Assembly: GCA_017881075.1 (NCBI GenBank)
Contig: JADGRH010000006.1
Location: 48,154 to 112,153 of the forward strand
DNA from: Minisyncoccota bacterium
GTDB taxonomy: Bacteria > Patescibacteriota > Minisyncoccia > Phycocordibacterales > CAJBRS01
Direction of reading: 5' to 3'
DNA: 64,000 bases
Made by a program: the position numbers and the translations under genes. The notes beneath the pieces are model-generated. The model did not search any database, had not been told where the DNA came from, and was given only the letters and a program-made list of their open reading frames with translations. Below, piece after piece: positions 2,959 through 57,417 of this stretch (the first letter of the stretch is position 1; every line of letters begins with the position of its first letter).

Positions 2959-4449
2959 ATGAAGAAAGACCCCTTTTTTGAAAAAATGGCAAATCTGGGT
3001 TTAGCCCTCACTTATGATGATGTTCGCCTGCGTTCCGGCTATTCGGAAACTGATCCGCGAGATGTTTTGATCGAGAGTTTCTTTAGTAAAAATATTCCCC
3101 TGCACTGTCCTATTGTCAGTGCCCCAATGGATACGGTTACCGAAAGCAAGATGGCAATTGCCATGGCTAAGCTTGGCGGTTTAGGCATTATTCACAAAGG
3201 TCTCACTCCCGAGATCCAATCAAATCATGTCAAAAAAGTAAAACTTCACCTGAATGGCTTGATAGAAAAACCAATCACTGTAAAAGCGGATGATATCGTT
3301 GGAGCAATTGAAGAAAGACAACAAAATAAAGACTACGGTTTTCACAGTTTCCCGGTAGTGGATGAGGGTGGAAAATTAATCGGCCTGATTAGCCGCAACG
3401 ATTTTGATCTGAATAATGATAAAAGTCTCCGCGCCAGAGATATCATGACAGTTCTCGCGGAATTAATCACTGCTCCGGTAAACACTTCTCTGGAAGAAGC
3501 GTACTCTATTTTGAAACAGGCTCGGAAAAAAATACTGCCCCTCATCAACGATAAAACCGAACTTACTGGTTTGTATGTTTTCTCCGATGTTAATCGGCTT
3601 TTAACTGATAGTTCCAGTCTTTATAATGTCGATAAATCGGGACATTTACGCGTTGGGGCAGCCGTTGGCACCGGAAATGCTGAAATTGAAAGAGCTTCTC
3701 TTCTAGTGAGAGCGGGAGTTGATGTTTTAGTTATCGATACCGCTCACGGTGACTCCAAGAATGTTTACGAAACTTTGAAAACATTAAAACAATCGCACCC
3801 TAAAGTTGATATTGTGGTTGGAAATGTTTCGGAAGGAGAATCGGCCAAACGGCTTGTTGATGCCGGAGCTGATGGCATCAAAATTGGACAAGGGCCGGGT
3901 TCTATTTGCACCACTCGAATTATTGCTGGCATCGGCTGTCCCCAAGTGACAGCTGTCTATAATTGCGCCAAGGCCGTTCGTGGCTCCGGTGTTCCGGTCT
4001 GCGCCGACGGCGGCATTAAAAATTCCGGCGACATTACCATCGCCCTTGGCCTTGGCGCCCATTCGGTAATGCTTGGCCGAGTCTTGGCTGGCACAACAGA
4101 GACTCCCGGGGAAATACGGCTCACTGCCCAGGGCCGGATGAAAATTTACCGGGGTATGGGATCTCTTGGAGCAATGCAATCTAGTCGAACGGCACGAGAG
4201 CGTTACCGCCAAGGAGAAGACGATATTAAGAAGCTGGTGCCTGAAGGAATAGAGAGTGTGGTGTCCTATCAAGGAGATCTTGCCAACGTTCTTTTTAAAC
4301 AAATTGGTGGATTACGAAGTGGTATGGGCTATGTTGGCGCTAAAACGATTGCGGAACTCCAAGAAAAAGCAGACTTCCATCGTCTATCCGGTGCCGGCAT
4401 GATAGAATCACATCCTCACGATGTTACTATTATAGATTCTGCTCAATAA
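2959..4449 (+). CDS. guaB: inosine-5'-monophosphate dehydrogenase
   Basis: IMPDH catalytic TIM barrel with GSICTTR active-site loop and a tandem CBS insert; 496 aa. Confidence 0.95.
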
Positions 4450-12529: not shown

Positions 12530-13009
12530 TTAAACTACGGGCTCAGCAACTACTTCAGGAGTTTTTACTTCCTCGTCTGATTTTTCTGTAAATGCAGGCG
12601 CTTCAACTGTTTCTTCTTTAACAGCCATCATTCTTTCTTGTCGCATCTGTCGGTTAATTTCTTTGGCTACCTTGTCGCGAACATAATAGAGTTTTGATCG
12701 ACGAACTTTCGCTCGGCGGACCACTTCAATCTTATCAATTAGAGGAGAGTATAGCGGGAAAATTTTTTCCACACCGTAGCCACCGGAAACTCTGCGGACG
12801 GTAAAGGTAGCACCTGCTTCAGTACCATGCTTTCTGGCCAGAACCAACCCCTCAAACATCTGTAGGCGAGTCTTACCCTTTTCCTGAATTTTCTGAGAAA
12901 TACGAACGGTGTCACCGGCTCGGAGGTCGGTCTTTTTTCGCTCTTCCTTGTTTAAAGTGGAAAGAGTGATGATTTTTGGGGTGTTTACGGTCTTTACTGC
13001 TTTAGCCAT
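12530..13009 (-). CDS. rplS: 50S ribosomal protein L19 with C-terminal acidic extension
   Basis: RAGDTVRISQKIQEKGKTRLQMFEGLVLARKHGT...TFTVRRVSGGYGVEKIFPLYSP aligns to L19. Extra C-terminal tail. Confidence 0.9.
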   Translation of the reverse strand: MAKAVKTVNTPKIITLSTLNKEERKKTDLRAGDTVRISQKIQEKGKTRLQMFEGLVLARKHGTEAGATFTVRRVSGGYGVEKIFPLYSPLIDKIEVVRRAKVRRSKLYYVRDKVAKEINRQMRQERMMAVKEETVEAPAFTEKSDEEVKTPEVVAEPVV

Positions 13010-13068
13010 TAGGAGATTAATTTAACACAGGTCTTTTTCATTAGCAAACTGCGGCCTAAGACGCGAAA

Positions 13069-13135
13069 CCCACAACTTTCAGAGAGACTAAGACTTGGGC
13101 AAACGCCCCGGAGTGGTCTCTCTGAAAGTTGTGGG
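13069..13135. repeat. palindromic repeat element copy 1 (27-nt conserved core flanked by 20-bp perfect inverted arms)
   Basis: Arms cccacaactttcagagagac / gtctctctgaaagttgtggg enclose core TAAGACTTGGGCAAACGCCCCGGAGTG. An outer, weaker inverted repeat ggcctaa/ttaggcc extends the structure. Intergenic between rluA-family gene and rplS. Confidence 0.65.
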
Positions 13136-13143
13136 TGAGCGGT

Positions 13144-13878
13144 TTAGGCCGTAAGCTCTAAAGCTCTTTGGAAATCAGACGGAAGCGGTGCCTCTGCCTT
13201 GATAAGAGTGCCGTCCATACTTTTAAACTCAATGCTCTTGGCATGAAGGGCCAGCCGTTCAAAACCGAGAATAGGAGCACGTTTTGGAGCATAGAGCTTA
13301 TCGCAGACAATCGGGTGATTAATGGCTTTGAAATGAACACGGATTTGGTGGGTCCGGCCGGTTTCCGGCCGGACCTCTAAGTAGCTCGCCCCGCCAAGGG
13401 CGGGGCTCGTCTCCTTACTCCTTTTCAAAACCTTAAAATTAGTCACCGCCTCCCTCGCCACTCCTCTTCCCCCTCTTTGTGCCGACCACATCCGAAAATC
13501 TTTTTTGCTTCTGGCGATTGGTCTGTCGATCACTCCTTCGTCCTGCTTTACTTCACCATAAACAAAGGCATGATAAATTTTTGAGATCTCCCGAGTCTGA
13601 AAAAGATTTTTTAAATATAAAAATGATTCTTGAGTTCTGGCCACCACCAATACACCTGAAGTCTCCCTATCGAGTCGATGCACAATCCCAGGTCTGTAAA
13701 TAATTTTTCCGTCGGGTGTTTTCCACGGTTCCCCCACCTCCTTTATCTCCGGATATTTTTCTAAAAGCCAATCGACAACCGAAAGCTCCTTGGTCTTGCC
13801 ATCAGAATGAACGACAAAGCTGGAGGGTTTGTCTAGGATCAGGAGATTTTTATCTTCATGTAACATATTCATATTCAT
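13144..13878 (-). CDS. RluA-family 23S rRNA/tRNA pseudouridine synthase
   Basis: HRLDRETSGVLVVART catalytic-Asp motif and TGRTHQIRVH motif. Contains an internal GC palindrome (13384-13410). Confidence 0.85.
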   Translation of the reverse strand: MNMNMLHEDKNLLILDKPSSFVVHSDGKTKELSVVDWLLEKYPEIKEVGEPWKTPDGKIIYRPGIVHRLDRETSGVLVVARTQESFLYLKNLFQTREISKIYHAFVYGEVKQDEGVIDRPIARSKKDFRMWSAQRGGRGVAREAVTNFKVLKRSKETSPALGGASYLEVRPETGRTHQIRVHFKAINHPIVCDKLYAPKRAPILGFERLALHAKSIEFKSMDGTLIKAEAPLPSDFQRALELTA

Positions 13879-17079: not shown

Positions 17080-17236
17080 ATACAGGAATCGGTCACACAT
17101 AATTTTCTGCTGAAAATTTGCGCGACCCCGCCTCCTCGCCTTCGCTCGTCCGGCCTTGCGCTTTGGGTCCCATCCCAAAGCTCACCTCTCATTACGGCTT
17201 AGAAGTCCGCTGTTCTATCCATTGAACTACGAGGGC
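17080..17236 (-). repeat. tRNA-associated conserved module, copy B, fused to a duplicated 5' portion (positions 1-47) of a tRNA-Arg-like sequence
   Basis: 17193-17236 (minus strand) reproduces the tRNA-Arg acceptor 5' strand variant GCCCTCG, D-arm and full TCT anticodon arm. Then a roughly 110-nt insert contains the shared hairpin (17091-17135) and ends in ..GACCGATTCCT, imitating the T-loop 3' side, 17 nt before the intact tRNA-Arg. Confidence 0.55.
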
Positions 17237-19825: not shown

Positions 19826-19975
19826 TATGAATATTATACAACATTCAAGCCTTCCCGCTCCATCATCAGTATTATCTCAGCGGGCATTCGCCGACTCATG
19901 CCCATGACGGCCACGGCACGTAGGAAGTGCCCCGCAATGCTTCGATAACACTGATGATTGCGCGGGAAGTCTTGA

Positions 19976-39242: not shown

Positions 39243-39269
39243 TTAATAAATATAGTATACGCTCGCATA

Positions 39270-39328
39270 CGAACTTTAAAACAGACCGCTCCGGGGCGCT
39301 TGCCCAAGTCTTAGTCTATTTTAAAGTT
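39270..39328. repeat. palindromic repeat element copy 2 (opposite orientation), at the tsaE 3' end / polA upstream intergenic region
   Basis: Reverse complement reads acaactttaaaatagac-TAAGACTTGGGCAAGCGCCCCGGAGCG-gtctgttttaaagtt. Core differs at two positions from copies 1 and 3. The last four tsaE codons (HTTLK) and the TAG stop lie in the right arm. Confidence 0.6.
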
Positions 39329-39864
39329 GTATGTTTCGCGCTACTATATTCTATTTCACGTGTGTTTTCGTCAATAAATTTAAAATAAACTTTATGAAAG
39401 TTTTCCGGCATAGCGCTCGCTACATTTTCCGGCCACTCTATTAAAACAAGATTATTCGGATCTGCAAGCACTTCGGCAAAGTTCAACTTCATTAATTCTT
39501 CACCGTTTTTTAGACGGTAAGCGTCTATGTGAATGAGTCTTTCAAAAGACGAGGTGGGGCGATCGGAACCAGCCATTTTAGAGACTAAGACTTGGGCAAA
39601 CGCCCCGGAGTGGTCTCTAAAATGGCTGGTTCCGGGAGCTTCCACCTCATATCTTTTCATAATCACAAACGTGGGGCTGGTGATAATCTCTTTGATTCCC
39701 ACAAGCCTCCCTATCGCCTGAACAAAGGTAGTTTTTCCGGCACCCAAGTCGCCAAAGAGTCCCGCGACTTGGGCGCCTTTTCCTACTTTATTTTCACTCA
39801 AAAAATCTAAAAAATCCTTGGCGGCCTCTTCTGTCTCGGCCAAACTTTTACTTACCCTCTTCAT
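39316..39864 (-). CDS. tsaE: tRNA threonylcarbamoyladenosine biosynthesis ATPase TsaE (YjeE), with about 31-aa in-frame insertion
   Basis: GDLGAGKTTF Walker A, SPTF and HIDAYRL motifs. The segment GTSHFRDHSGAFAQVLVSKMAGSDRPTSSFE between them is encoded by palindromic element copy 3. Confidence 0.8.
   Translation of the reverse strand: MKRVSKSLAETEEAAKDFLDFLSENKVGKGAQVAGLFGDLGAGKTTFVQAIGRLVGIKEIITSPTFVIMKRYEVEAPGTSHFRDHSGAFAQVLVSKMAGSDRPTSSFERLIHIDAYRLKNGEELMKLNFAEVLADPNNLVLIEWPENVASAMPENFHKVYFKFIDENTREIEYSSAKHTTLK
39563..39634. repeat. palindromic repeat element copy 3, inserted in-frame inside tsaE
   Basis: 22-bp perfect arms cggaaccagccattttagagac / gtctctaaaatggctggttccg flank core TAAGACTTGGGCAAACGCCCCGGAGTG, identical to copy 1. 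No stop codon in the tsaE frame. Confidence 0.65.
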
Positions 39865-39942: not shown

Positions 39943-40806
39943 CTATCGTCGTACTCCGTTAACCGTCACGGTGGTGTAGTTCCCATTGGAGTTATAATTA
40001 CCGGTCGTGTTCGTGAGCACAATCCCAGGACCTGCCATCTGCCGCTGTGGCTGTGGCTGTGGCCGCGGTTGCTGTTGCGGTTGCATCCGAGGAAACTGCT
40101 GCCGAATCGGCTGGGAATGATACTGAGAAATTAACCTCGGTAACATCGCCAGAAACGGTTGGAACGGCTGAGGCGACGGCCGGTATTGAGGCCGCGGTAC
40201 TTGCTGACGCTGCACCTCACATTCTCGACAAGGCGGTGGAGGAGCAGACACGTGCCGTCTTTCCTGCTTCGGACATGGTACCTGAGTAAGATTTACCCGG
40301 TTCTTATAATCATGGCCGTCGAGAATGCAGTGGTCAATGTAGAGGGGAATCCACATCCCCTTAATCTTGAGACACCAGAACCACGCATCTTTGGCCTGGT
40401 CCAGTTCCACCCCGCCATTGTTCATGTCGTTGAGGAAGAGGTAGCCAGGAATCTCGCTTCCAGGAACGTGAGTCAAGCCTTTCAAACTTTCCGGGCCTGC
40501 ATATCGTGGCTGACGAAAAATCTCCGGGCCGACACCGCTCTCGCTCACCGTTTTGATAGTGTCGTAGCGTTTTTCCGTATGACCTGTCCGATCGTGAGGC
40601 CGATATCGGTTTCCATCGTAGGAAGTGCGCTGAGGTCGCGAGTCGGTGCGATCGTAGTGATCGCTTGATTCGGATGGTCCGTAACTTGGAAGCGACGGCG
40701 CCATTGGAAGTGTTGGGTCGTACTCGCCACCATTTTGGGCGCGCACGTTGATAGTTAAACTGACGCTGACAATTGCTGTCAGCAAGATTGCAATGAACGT
40801 TTTCAT
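39943..40806 (-). CDS. secreted Pro/Gln/Arg-rich repetitive protein
   Basis: Signal peptide. C-terminal QPRPQPQPQRQ-type low-complexity repeats from the ggctgtggctgtgg DNA repeat at about 40020-40110. Confidence 0.5.
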   Translation of the reverse strand: MKTFIAILLTAIVSVSLTINVRAQNGGEYDPTLPMAPSLPSYGPSESSDHYDRTDSRPQRTSYDGNRYRPHDRTGHTEKRYDTIKTVSESGVGPEIFRQPRYAGPESLKGLTHVPGSEIPGYLFLNDMNNGGVELDQAKDAWFWCLKIKGMWIPLYIDHCILDGHDYKNRVNLTQVPCPKQERRHVSAPPPPCRECEVQRQQVPRPQYRPSPQPFQPFLAMLPRLISQYHSQPIRQQFPRMQPQQQPRPQPQPQRQMAGPGIVLTNTTGNYNSNGNYTTVTVNGVRR

Positions 40807-45951: not shown

Positions 45952-46434
45952 ATGAAAATCTTATCAATTGATCCAGGATATGAGAGATTGGGAGTGGCGA
46001 TAGTTAAAAAGAATCCAGGAGAGAAAGAGAAACTGGTTTATTCGAATTGTTTTAAGACCTCGGCCAAGCTCTCCTTTCACGACCGACTTGTTCTTATTGG
46101 AAAAGAAGTGAAAAGATTAATAAAAGAATTCGAGCCGACTGCCTTGGCAATAGAGACTTTATATTTCAATACCAATCAAAAGACAGCCATAAATGTGGCA
46201 GAGGTGTGTGGAGTTATAAAATACGAAGCTTTGTCAGCCAAATTAAAACTTTACGAATACACTCCCCTTCAAGTAAAGATCGCTGTCACCGGCTACGGTC
46301 GTGGCGATAAAAAACAAGTTATCTCCATGATCAATCGGCTCATAACCATCGATAAAAAAATCACTCATGACGACGAATTCGACGCCATCGCCATCGGCCT
46401 CACCTATTTTGCCTCTGTTTCGAGCCTGAAATGA
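45952..46434 (+). CDS. ruvC: crossover junction endodeoxyribonuclease RuvC
   Basis: ILSIDPGYERLGVAIV N-terminal catalytic Asp motif, RNase H-like fold; 160 aa. Confidence 0.9.
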   Translation: MKILSIDPGYERLGVAIVKKNPGEKEKLVYSNCFKTSAKLSFHDRLVLIGKEVKRLIKEFEPTALAIETLYFNTNQKTAINVAEVCGVIKYEALSAKLKLYEYTPLQVKIAVTGYGRGDKKQVISMINRLITIDKKITHDDEFDAIAIGLTYFASVSSLK

Positions 46435-46635
46435 GTGGTGCAGAACCAAAAAGCCTGTTTCGCCGCCGAGGATAGCGAAAGTACTGCTAGGATTGCCTTT
46501 TCAAGAGCGTCGCACCGCAGGCAAGAAACAGGCTTTTTGGTGAAGCAAAACTTATCCACAGGTTATTCCTACAGCTCTTCACAAGTTATCCTTTATTTGA
46601 TACAACTAGGGCATTAATAGTTAGCTCATTGCTAA

Positions 46636-56404: not shown

Positions 56405-57417
56405 GTTCCGTAAAAAGTAAAAGTAATATTATGACTTTGATTTATGTTGTTGTTATTACCAGGTGACCATAACCCAAGAGCATTTGCCGCCGCCGGCGAC
56501 ATCTCTCCCCAACCAGTTGCCCCATTATCTCCCGCTACCGCCATTATTGATCGAGGGGGTTGGGCGGTGTTATCAGTGATCAATACCGGTGTGCCCATAG
56601 GAATACCAGAGTTGCTTGGTACGGCAACGTAAGGAACATTAAAGGCATCTAAACTATGTCCATTTGGCTGATAAGATGTACCTGATGTCCAGGTGCTGTC
56701 CCAACCAGGATTATTTCCTCCATCAGTATCCAAGGCCACATTGTTTGCCTGATGGGGCATACCATTTACCACATTCCCATTTGGATCAATAAAATAAGAA
56801 CTGCTTCCATCCACCGGATTCACACCAGTGTAGCCATTATTATAATCCGTATATGTTCCATCACTCTCGTTACGTATCTGTGCTACCCCACTATCTCCTC
56901 CAGCAAGCCCGACTGGCGTAACTCCACTCCCAGTAGGAGCTTGTCCTCGCGGATTATTCAGACTGTCAGCTGTAACATTCACTCCTCCAATATTCGGCTC
57001 GGTGTTAAGTAGTTGTGGGTTGATAGTATTTAAGAGGAGATATGCTCCCAAGGCAATCAACAATCCCCACAAAGCCGAAGTAATTTTATCCTTTCCATCC
57101 TCTTTGCCCCCAATAGCATCGGTAGACATATATTTAATACCTCCCAAGACAATCATGACAACGGCCAGACCCGTGGCAATGGCCACCCCCAGTCGGAACA
57201 AGCCATTTAAATAACCAGTTAGATTATCAGATGTAGTAGAGGGTAAATATCCTGTTATAGGAGCGAGAGGAACATACGGAGTACCACCAACTGCCGAAGC
57301 ATTGCCGGAAGCCCCGATTCCAGCGGCCGATACAATAAATGGAAGAAAAATAAATAAAAAAAGGGATAAATAAACCAAACCCGTCAACGATAATTTTTTG
57401 AATTTAGAAGGTAACAT
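56383..57417 (-). CDS. VirB2/TrbC-like T4SS pilin with long Gly/Asn/Thr-rich C-terminal extension
   Basis: Long signal-like N-terminus, then two hydrophobic segments LGVAIATGLAVVMIVLGGIKYM and ITSALWGLLIALGAYLLLNTI, matching TrbC/VirB2 topology. 344 aa is much longer than canonical pilins. Confidence 0.45.
   Translation of the reverse strand: MLPSKFKKLSLTGLVYLSLFLFIFLPFIVSAAGIGASGNASAVGGTPYVPLAPITGYLPSTTSDNLTGYLNGLFRLGVAIATGLAVVMIVLGGIKYMSTDAIGGKEDGKDKITSALWGLLIALGAYLLLNTINPQLLNTEPNIGGVNVTADSLNNPRGQAPTGSGVTPVGLAGGDSGVAQIRNESDGTYTDYNNGYTGVNPVDGSSSYFIDPNGNVVNGMPHQANNVALDTDGGNNPGWDSTWTSGTSYQPNGHSLDAFNVPYVAVPSNSGIPMGTPVLITDNTAQPPRSIMAVAGDNGATGWGEMSPAAANALGLWSPGNNNNINQSHNITFTFYGTCSTCHQ

Follow-up and report, generated by a model that had tools for sequence, protein, structure and literature searches.

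A hairpin repeat family of Patescibacteria with a conserved core and variable, paired arms, including a copy read through in tsaE

We examined three palindromic elements in a 64,000-nt stretch of a Minisyncoccota bacterium genome (contig JADGRH010000006.1 of assembly GCA_017881075.1, positions 48,154 to 112,153; hereafter the window, numbered from its first letter). These elements belong to a large repeat family of the Candidate Phyla Radiation (CPR, or Patescibacteria), in which a structured, strand-specific tip is carried by stems that vary in sequence and are nevertheless paired. Comparison with a syntenic contig, L075, shows that the element was inserted at two of the window sites, and copies in open reading frames (ORFs), such as the one in the window gene tsaE, are tolerated in-frame. 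We favor the explanation, with a probability of roughly 0.58, that this is a non-autonomous mobile hairpin family that spans the CPR/Patescibacteria, that the folded core-sense strand is what is recognized, and that the arms are kept paired partly by template switching.

The window copies and the wider family

A first-pass annotation of the window had proposed that three copies share a 27-nt core on self-complementary stems. This core, TAAGACTTGGGCAARCGCCCCGGAGYG, was found exactly three times, with zero matches expected by chance (100 shuffles), and no fourth match appeared in the window even when three mismatches were allowed. With a covariance model derived from 148 members of the family, the three copies score 75–76 bits and no other place reaches that level. 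The next-best match (18.7 bits) is the opposite strand of the same three sites. With the two strands of the element separated by about 57 bits, the model scores one strand only. The arms had been described as perfect within each copy, which is true of copies 1 and 3 (21 and 22 bp, 100% complementary, with exactly 27 nt between the arms), but not of copy 2, where 15 bp pair without gaps and with one G:T, or about 21 bp if a 1-nt bulge is allowed. The proposed extent of 60–70 nt proved too short: beyond a purine-rich internal loop pairing resumes as an outer stem, and each whole element measures about 100 nt. Compared with shuffled sequences the three copies fold with z = -6 to -11 on the core strand, with a poorer fold for the complement in each of them. 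The arms of copies 1 and 2, which stand at different loci, are homologous (16/21 identical); copies 2 and 3 lie 270 nt apart, inverted to each other. The features are as follows.

13050-13153 (+): copy 1, whole hairpin; fold of -55 kcal/mol, z = -11
13050-13059 and 13144-13153 (+): copy 1, outer stem of the wider fold, with internal loop; contains the final codons and stop of the rluD-like ORF
12530-13009 (-) and 13144-13878 (-): rplS-like and rluD-like ORFs, between which copy 1 lies
13068-13088 (+): copy 1, 5' inner arm, 21 nt, 100% complementary to 13116-13136
13089-13115 (+): copy 1, core of the A15/T26 type; exact match, covariance model 75.7 bits
13116-13136 (+): copy 1, 3' inner arm, by complementarity to 13068-13088
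39246-39345 (-): copy 2, whole element, insertion of about 100 nt at the tsaE/polA junction, from DNA alignment with L075 and from the fold
39287-39313 (-): copy 2, core of the G15/C26 type; pattern match, covariance model 75.0 bits
39266-39286 (-): copy 2, arm 3' of the core in element orientation; complementary to 39314-39333 apart from one G:T and a 1-nt bulge
39314-39333 (-): copy 2, arm 5' of the core in element orientation; holds the present tsaE stop, 39316-39318
39551-39648 (+): copy 3, whole hairpin, within tsaE in antisense orientation; made up of the outer stem GAGGTGG/CCACCTC, an internal loop, an inner stem and the core; fold of -59.7 kcal/mol, z = -10
39564-39585 (+): copy 3, 5' inner arm, 22 nt, 100% complementary to 39613-39634
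39586-39612 (+): copy 3, core of the A15/T26 type; exact match, covariance model 76.2 bits
39613-39634 (+): copy 3, 3' inner arm, by complementarity to 39564-39585
39316-39864 (-): tsaE, 182 aa; Pfam PF02367, E = 1.5e-28, matched in two stretches

The first-pass annotation had also proposed a repeat family with a conserved center and with arms that differ between copies and still pair, and this was borne out well beyond the window. An exact search with a 22-nt core in one genome per species returned 73 loci. In metagenomes a degenerate version of the core matched at least 120 loci, a count that is a lower bound, with groundwater, sediment and the human gut among the sources. Pooled, the CPR genomes and metagenomes contain at least 184 unique copies. 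The core thus occurs at hundreds of places with different arms, which speaks against the recent duplication that the first-pass annotation had named as refuting its reading. One fragmented metagenome-assembled genome holds about 19–20 copies, and several contigs end inside a copy. All 73 genome loci are from CPR/Patescibacteria save one on a contig labeled as archaeal (L053, "archaeon GW2011_AR5"). An archaeal host is unsupported for this contig, on which lie genes for a sortase-like protein (557-1159, -) and for a protein with an LPNTG anchor (1169-1726, -); these features are bacterial and CPR-typical, and the label is probably a binning error. The family is absent from the viral contigs, phage genomes and plasmids that we searched. 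Rfam, its small self-cleaving ribozymes and riboswitch pseudoknots among the models, gave no match to the element at gathering thresholds, and only spurious miRNA-shaped hairpins at E values up to 10. A literature search returned no description of such a CPR repeat, nor was the core sequence met in this context.

Copies of the family tend to cluster: two stand in tandem, 68 nt apart, at L105:8303-8425 (-), and two are inverted, 150 nt apart, at L065:7259-7463. Separately, L032 (position 5633) and L150 (position 4937) contain one identical hairpin with 18-bp perfect arms, AAAAGTCCTTAC.../...GTAAGGACTTTT, around a 30-nt center, GGAAGGGCTTGAAGCGTACATCTCCCTGGA. This is either another type of hairpin repeat or one genomic region sampled twice.

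Structure of the element and asymmetry between its strands

The inner arm has a median length of 28 bp (5th–95th percentile 19–67) and the unit a median length of 83 nt. The core occurs as GAC-TAAGACTTGGGCAARCGCCCCGGAGYG-GTC (type I) or as GAG-TAAGACTTGGCCTARCGGCCCGGAGYG-CTC (type II) and, read from the sequence, has no dyad symmetry. It contains a small 4-bp hairpin, c9-12:c17-20, with a WARC tetraloop, which is paired in 100% of the copies in a gap-free alignment of 148 distinct ones. Within this hairpin the pair c11:c18 is G:C in 99 copies and C:G in 49, with none broken, under a search pattern that permitted all four G/C combinations at these positions; these swaps prove the hairpin. A second pair, c15:c26, is G:C in 107 copies, A:U in 36, G:U in one and another combination in four, and is found on both c11:c18 backgrounds. 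As position c15 is part of the small hairpin's tetraloop, this covariation, together with c16:c25, implies a putative mini H-type pseudoknot. In the RNAalifold structure, by contrast, the partner of c26 is the invariant G4 (G:C or G:U), with C6:G25, U7:A24 and U8•G23 as additional pairs, while a nested pair c5:c26 was rejected, being paired in only 43/148 copies. The partner of c26 may therefore be c15 or G4, and two conformers are possible. In human gut metagenomes one and the same locus (L079, L088, L101, L104) has T or C at c26 and keeps A at c15, which is a strain-level, uncompensated polymorphism at the covarying pair.

Double changes occur in all 14 of the stem pairs adjacent to the core. 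What the copies share outside the core is confined to about 5–9 bp beside it and a basal G•A loop motif; the arms otherwise differ between nearly all copies. At unrelated loci the common apical stem reads AGAGAC/GTCTCT or GNNNG/CNNNC; at its base the inner stem has a symmetric internal loop of GA or GNA type, 5'-GC GA G...C GA GC-3'. A G•A or A•G mismatch stands two pairs away from the core in many type II copies, G•A mismatches recur at the same stem positions across copies, and in many stems the 5' arm has a run of A and the 3' arm a run of T. A subfamily with stems of 21–22 bp (for example L003, L005, L027, L036, L044, L050, L052, L053 and L071) is flanked by GCGNAGC on the 5' side and GCGNAGY on the 3' side. 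The sequence d(GCGNAGC) is an unusually stable DNA mini-hairpin motif, and by this analogy the flanks could be a hint at single-stranded DNA (ssDNA) biology, or a coincidence. In L011 (about 3150-3300, -) the basal motif AGCGAG...CGAGCGAC stands about 45 nt from the core, compared with the usual 21 nt or so, with an extra paired segment in between; this copy is either a long-stem variant or a nested element. Compared by eye, the K-turn, hammerhead, twister, pistol, 11-nt tetraloop receptor and CsrA-type GGA motifs did not fit, in agreement with Rfam for the curated ones.

Stem mismatches were counted on the core strand, with the genome set and an independent metagenome set kept separate. G:T exceeds A:C by 75:31 in the genomes and 114:32 in the metagenomes (189 versus 63 in total), and G•A exceeds T•C by 65:14 and 104:20 (169 versus 34). 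The bias is present in copies whose neighboring genes point the same way as the core (48:19), the opposite way (78:25) or both ways (42:13). Since it is the same in all gene contexts, it is a property of the element and not of host mRNAs. In the antisense majority it appears to run opposite to the coding-strand C-to-T expectation. The first-pass annotation had taken the compensating arms as evidence for selection on a hairpin. We agree that a single-stranded fold is supported, but by other observations: paired arms alone are insufficient, as template switching can also produce them, whereas the covariation in the core, the strand-asymmetric mismatches and the recurrent G•A are better evidence for a functional single-stranded fold than the pairing of the arms. 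The G:T excess and the conserved mismatches are the stronger evidence because they survive arm-to-arm correction.

A near-invariant 27-bp sequence, dispersed at roughly one copy per 20 kb in the window, might also be pictured as a double-stranded DNA site for a chromosome-organizing or regulatory protein, with the palindrome as an incidental feature. This is the least probable of the explanations we considered. The covariation at c11:c18 and c15:c26 and the asymmetric mismatches make sense only for a folded single strand, the core is not dyad-symmetric, and copies occur inside ORFs and are present in some relatives and absent from others.

Insertion sites, the copy in tsaE and the search for a partner

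Copy 3 lies in the loop of TsaE between the SPTF and HIDAYRL motifs. The earlier reading of this copy as translated without a stop codon was right, although the insert comprises about 24–28 residues rather than 31. The TsaE peptide contains HFRDHSGAFAQVLVSK, and the core on the tsaE strand reads HSGAFAQVL. A further 7–9 residues at the C-terminus are read-through into copy 2, the arm of which supplies the stop codon. The nearest uninterrupted TsaE orthologues have 146–147 residues, compared with 182 in the window. An AlphaFold model of the window protein has pLDDT values above 90 except at about residues 75–108, the insert, and 176–182, the tail. This low-confidence protrusion on an otherwise confident predicted fold fits a tolerated surface insertion.

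L075, the contig of P0004, is syntenic with the window and carries genes for a type II secretion system (T2SS)-type ATPase, a hypothetical protein, TsaE and PolA. Its TsaE loop is without the copy 3 segment. Its tsaE stop codon, TAA, is followed directly by the polA ATG, without the approximately 100 nt of copy 2. Both empty sites are without the arms as well as the core, and the 20 kb of L075 contain no family copy. Because this syntenic contig has neither of them, copies 2 and 3 are insertions. Orthologues without the loop and the empty L075 site thus confirm the suggestion in the first-pass annotation that tsaE had been interrupted.

These empty sites also bear on the idea that mobility is confined to the 27-nt core, which would land in the loops of hairpins already present in the host (terminators, for example), so that the arms would be host sequence. 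Such a process would account for arms that are unrelated between most copies, for the many copies just downstream of genes and for the 5' A-run and 3' T-run stems, which resemble bidirectional terminators. We consider it highly improbable, since the two sites in L075 have no arms either, and TsaE orthologues are without the arm-encoded residues. Moreover, the apical stem and basal G•A motifs are common to copies at unrelated loci, and copies 1 and 2 have homologous arms at different loci.

The TsaE loop is a recurrent landing or tolerance site. In L074, whose TsaE is 62% identical, an element occupies the same loop with its core in the opposite orientation, read as RLGQAPRSG. Three more CPR TsaE genes contain palindromes in this loop (L197:1727-1794, L198:1733-1796, L199:1720-1789), with arms of 15–21 bp and centers of 22–34 nt that are unrelated to the core. 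The longest arms in L199 measure 24 bp, at 79%, and what L197 has in common with the family is limited to short pieces (AAGAC, CGCTCC). These palindromes could represent sister families, or decayed copies in which the arms are still paired.

Most copies of the family lie between genes, in many cases tens of bases or less from where a gene ends, and many stand just after stop codons. About 10–20% lie in an open frame inside long ORFs, in both orientations. Their hosts are IleRS-like (three orthologues), ValRS-like (three), UvrB-like and RarA/RuvB-like proteins, TsaE and prepilin leaders, and the encoded peptide is conserved only over the nine core codons (HSGAFAQVL, KTWASAPE and similar). Copies persist where they do little harm: in intergenic spacers, at gene ends, in cleaved leader peptides and in surface loops of proteins. 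Relative to flanking genes 70 copies are antisense, 45 sense and 40 mixed. The value of this orientation bias as evidence for an antisense function is weakened by the fact that many antisense copies are orthologous or paralogous prepilin-leader copies. Sense copies inside essential genes argue against an efficient terminator, a self-cleaver or a nuclease target. An intrinsic (Rho-independent) terminator was rejected on several grounds, namely the 27-nt loop (a G+C-rich stem, a loop of 3–8 nt and a U-tract would be expected), the copies inside ORFs and the absence of a terminator call at the window copies.

These data also bear on the main rival explanation, in which the element is a host-functional structured RNA, that is, a cis-acting or small RNA kept in place as a stabilizer, a processing or termination signal or a protein- or ligand-binding pseudoknot. 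Much of the structural evidence would suit such an RNA: the covariation in core and stem, the enrichment of G:U and G•A on one strand, the G•A mismatches at repeated stem positions and the many copies directly after stop codons. So would the retention of 26/27 core positions at an orthologous site with about 54% third-position divergence, described below. We nevertheless judge it unlikely. The orientation of the copies is mixed and the strand bias is independent of the direction of transcription. Copies occupy essential ORFs in both orientations, where a terminator, self-cleaver or RNase target in sense would be harmful, and window copies 2 and 3 are absent from L075. Finally, no promoter or terminator was called at any window copy, and no Rfam family corresponds to the element.

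A mobility enzyme was sought near the copies, in sequence reaching up to 15 kb around each (no more than 8 kb for the genome loci), and no recurrent candidate lies within 3 kb. Clustering of 865 neighboring ORFs gave housekeeping families only. RecJ, considered as a linked enzyme, reflects conserved synteny and its positions are inconsistent. Insertion into rRNA as the cause of conserved flanks was rejected, the flanks being prepilin genes. GCGGAG/GCGAG "direct repeats" are not a target-site duplication; they form the symmetric purine (G•A) internal loop of the element, and an excess of 2–3-nt direct repeats at the palindrome ends is this same GA loop.

Other features of the window are recorded here. 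Between tsaE and the T2SS-type ATPase gene lies an ORF of 287 aa (39943-40806, -) with a Pro/Gln-rich, repetitive C-terminal half (PQPQPQRQ...); L075 has a 290-aa counterpart at the same position. Longer imperfect inverted repeats occur at 19845-19975 (37 nt at 84%) and 46431-46555 (31 nt at 81%), with 57–63 nt between the arms and the family core in neither. A 100-nt tRNA match at 17137-17236 (-) stands at the Rfam threshold (29.3 bits, cut-off 29) and may represent a tRNA interrupted by an insertion or intron, or else a degenerate one.

Evolution of the stems, mobility and known repeat systems

L050, L071 and L027 carry the element at one orthologous position, where it is read in-frame as part of a prepilin leader; in L050 the ATG of this prepilin gene overlaps the upstream stop codon. 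A comparison of L050 with L027 gives 49/87 and 20/41 differences at third codon positions (about 54%). Each arm has 8 differences in 21 positions, all of them compensated, so that both stems are perfect, and the core differs at 1 of 27 positions. In the middle of the stem 8/11 positions differ, which is not significantly above the third-codon-position divergence. A nearly neutral change of the stem with 100% compensation fits correction of one arm by the other at the level of DNA. Copying from arm to arm is called for because the stem drifts about neutrally without visible intermediates. Template switching during replication is known to turn imperfect inverted repeats (quasipalindromes) into perfect ones (PMC7202029), and has been put forward as a process that maintains perfect inverted repeats in bacteria (PMC5941160).

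The copies of CAZOQP01 share a basal part (AGCGAG...CGAGCGAC) and an apical part (AAAAGAGAC...GTCTCTTTT), while each has its own, perfectly paired middle. Such a pattern might suggest a programmable or diversified hairpin, in which a unique mid-stem of about 10 bp serves as a guide-like specificity determinant, gives rise to small RNAs by way of a processed double-stranded RNA or is rewritten at each propagation. The inner stem of about 21–22 bp in many copies and the 8/11 changes at the orthologous site would agree with this idea. However, neutral drift with arm correction suffices to explain the changes, no other part of the window resembles the arms of its copies more than chance allows, and no associated effector gene lies near the copies. 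The two arm matches with three mismatches, at 57194 and 61562, are ordinary coding sequence, and a guide or target role was rejected. A TIGR array, with its loop spacers and tandem units beside a Tas gene, is not what we see. We regard a programmable hairpin as very unlikely.

For the mobile hairpin family that we favor, we envisage the following course. The folded core-sense single strand would be the propagating form, and ssDNA is somewhat likelier than RNA, because strand-acting hairpin repeats without target duplications are a hallmark of HUH/Y1 systems and because the fold is independent of host transcription. An enzyme encoded elsewhere would recognize the conserved tip together with the apical and basal stem segments. 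The mid-stem would be unconstrained in sequence, its pairing held by the requirement for a hairpin and by intrastrand template switching that copies arm onto arm. Mobility by a trans-acting enzyme is, in our view, a lead rather than a result.

Several observations weigh against mobility. Direct repeats of 4 nt or more are not in excess at the palindrome ends, and these ends show no conserved target or flanking motif other than purine-rich GA. No transposase, HUH enzyme or reverse transcriptase recurs within 3 kb of the copies. The only empty-site comparison is with L075, a distant relative whose TsaE is 59% identical. Almost no two copies share a mid-stem, and there is accordingly no sign of a recent burst from a single master. 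Enrichment of G:U and G•A is also a classic signature of functional RNA, and RNA and ssDNA are indistinguishable here. Lastly, orthologous sites retain the core although neutral positions have diverged by about 54%, in a comparison for which the orthologous loci were ascertained by their core; this retention could reflect function in place or gene conversion instead of mobility.

Whatever drives it, the family is abundant, easily recognized and spread across groundwater, sediment and gut lineages of the CPR/Patescibacteria, which make up a large share of bacterial diversity and in which mobile DNA and non-coding RNA are almost uncharted. It adds extra peptides to essential proteins (aminoacyl-tRNA synthetases, UvrB, TsaE), assemblies are broken at its copies, and its 27-nt core could mark CPR contigs. 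From its conserved, structured tip one would expect these organisms to possess a partner enzyme or factor. As a clean natural case of inverted-repeat arms that drift neutrally and yet stay complementary, it also illustrates that "compensatory" changes in a palindrome need not signal selection at the level of RNA.

Among known systems, the behavior of the family appears closest, by analogy, to Rickettsia palindromic elements (RPEs) and to the REP (repetitive extragenic palindromic)/REPIN elements. RPEs are short palindromes of host-dependent bacteria with reduced genomes; they lie repeatedly in-frame in unrelated housekeeping ORFs, are compatible with the protein fold and have no transposase of their own (PMC10969869). 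The CPR palindromes likewise lie in-frame in unrelated ORFs (TsaE, IleRS-, ValRS-, UvrB- and RarA/RuvB-like proteins, prepilin leaders). By their description, however, RPEs are conserved along the element and in the encoded peptide, whereas the CPR family is conserved only over 27 nt (9 codons) and short stem segments, and it resides in another host clade.

In REPIN/RAYT systems a single folded DNA strand acts and is mobilized in trans by RAYT, an HUH Y1 enzyme; the arms are conserved and the center less so. The CPR elements resemble REP/REPINs as dispersed, mostly extragenic hairpins with characteristic mismatches and no target duplication, but are inverted in design, with a conserved center and variable arms. 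REPs are imperfect palindromes of 20–40 nt with a conserved GTAG or CGTC head (PMC3733652). This head is absent from the CPR copies, which are flanked only by purine-rich GA, and by GCGNAG in one subfamily only.

HUH Rep origins and nick sites, single-strand origins of plasmids and integron attC sites are recognized as folded strands in which pairing matters more than the sequence of the stem, and Rep origins combine a conserved loop with a variable stem. Unlike the CPR elements, these sites are single-copy, short-stemmed and located beside the gene for their enzyme, and the attC boxes stand at the base and not at the tip; neither a Rep nor an integrase gene recurs near CPR copies. Derivation from IS200/IS605 elements (PATE-like) was rejected, since distinct end hairpins and a fixed 4–5-nt target would be expected, and we find one central hairpin and no conserved flanking tetranucleotide. 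TIGR-Tas stem-loop arrays consist of hairpin-flanked units and are also found in Patescibacteria (PMC12045711). They are tandem, lie beside a Tas (Nop-domain) gene and have box C/D-like motifs and spacers in the loops, whereas the CPR copies are dispersed, with a conserved loop and a variable stem.

[quoted passage not shown] The CPR element is similarly small, non-coding and multi-copy, with an insertion polymorphism at the L075 empty sites. MITEs, however, have terminal inverted repeats that match a parent insertion sequence, as well as target-site duplications, and the CPR family has neither, in line with the first-pass view that it is not a classical MITE. A conserved tip with variable arms is the inverse of MITEs, REP/REPINs and the other repeat families compared here. 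It is possible, though we hold this only tentatively, that the family represents a CPR-specific new element or class of non-coding nucleic acid, a pseudoknotted head on a freely evolving, perfectly paired stem, which either propagates through a single-stranded hairpin by means of a hitherto undescribed enzyme or acts as a widespread functional RNA or ssDNA signal. If so, its architecture would be the inverse of every described bacterial repeat family, with arms that co-evolve neutrally without losing their pairing. The family is apparently undescribed and belongs among the bacterial palindromic repeats, with a substantial chance that its mechanism is new.

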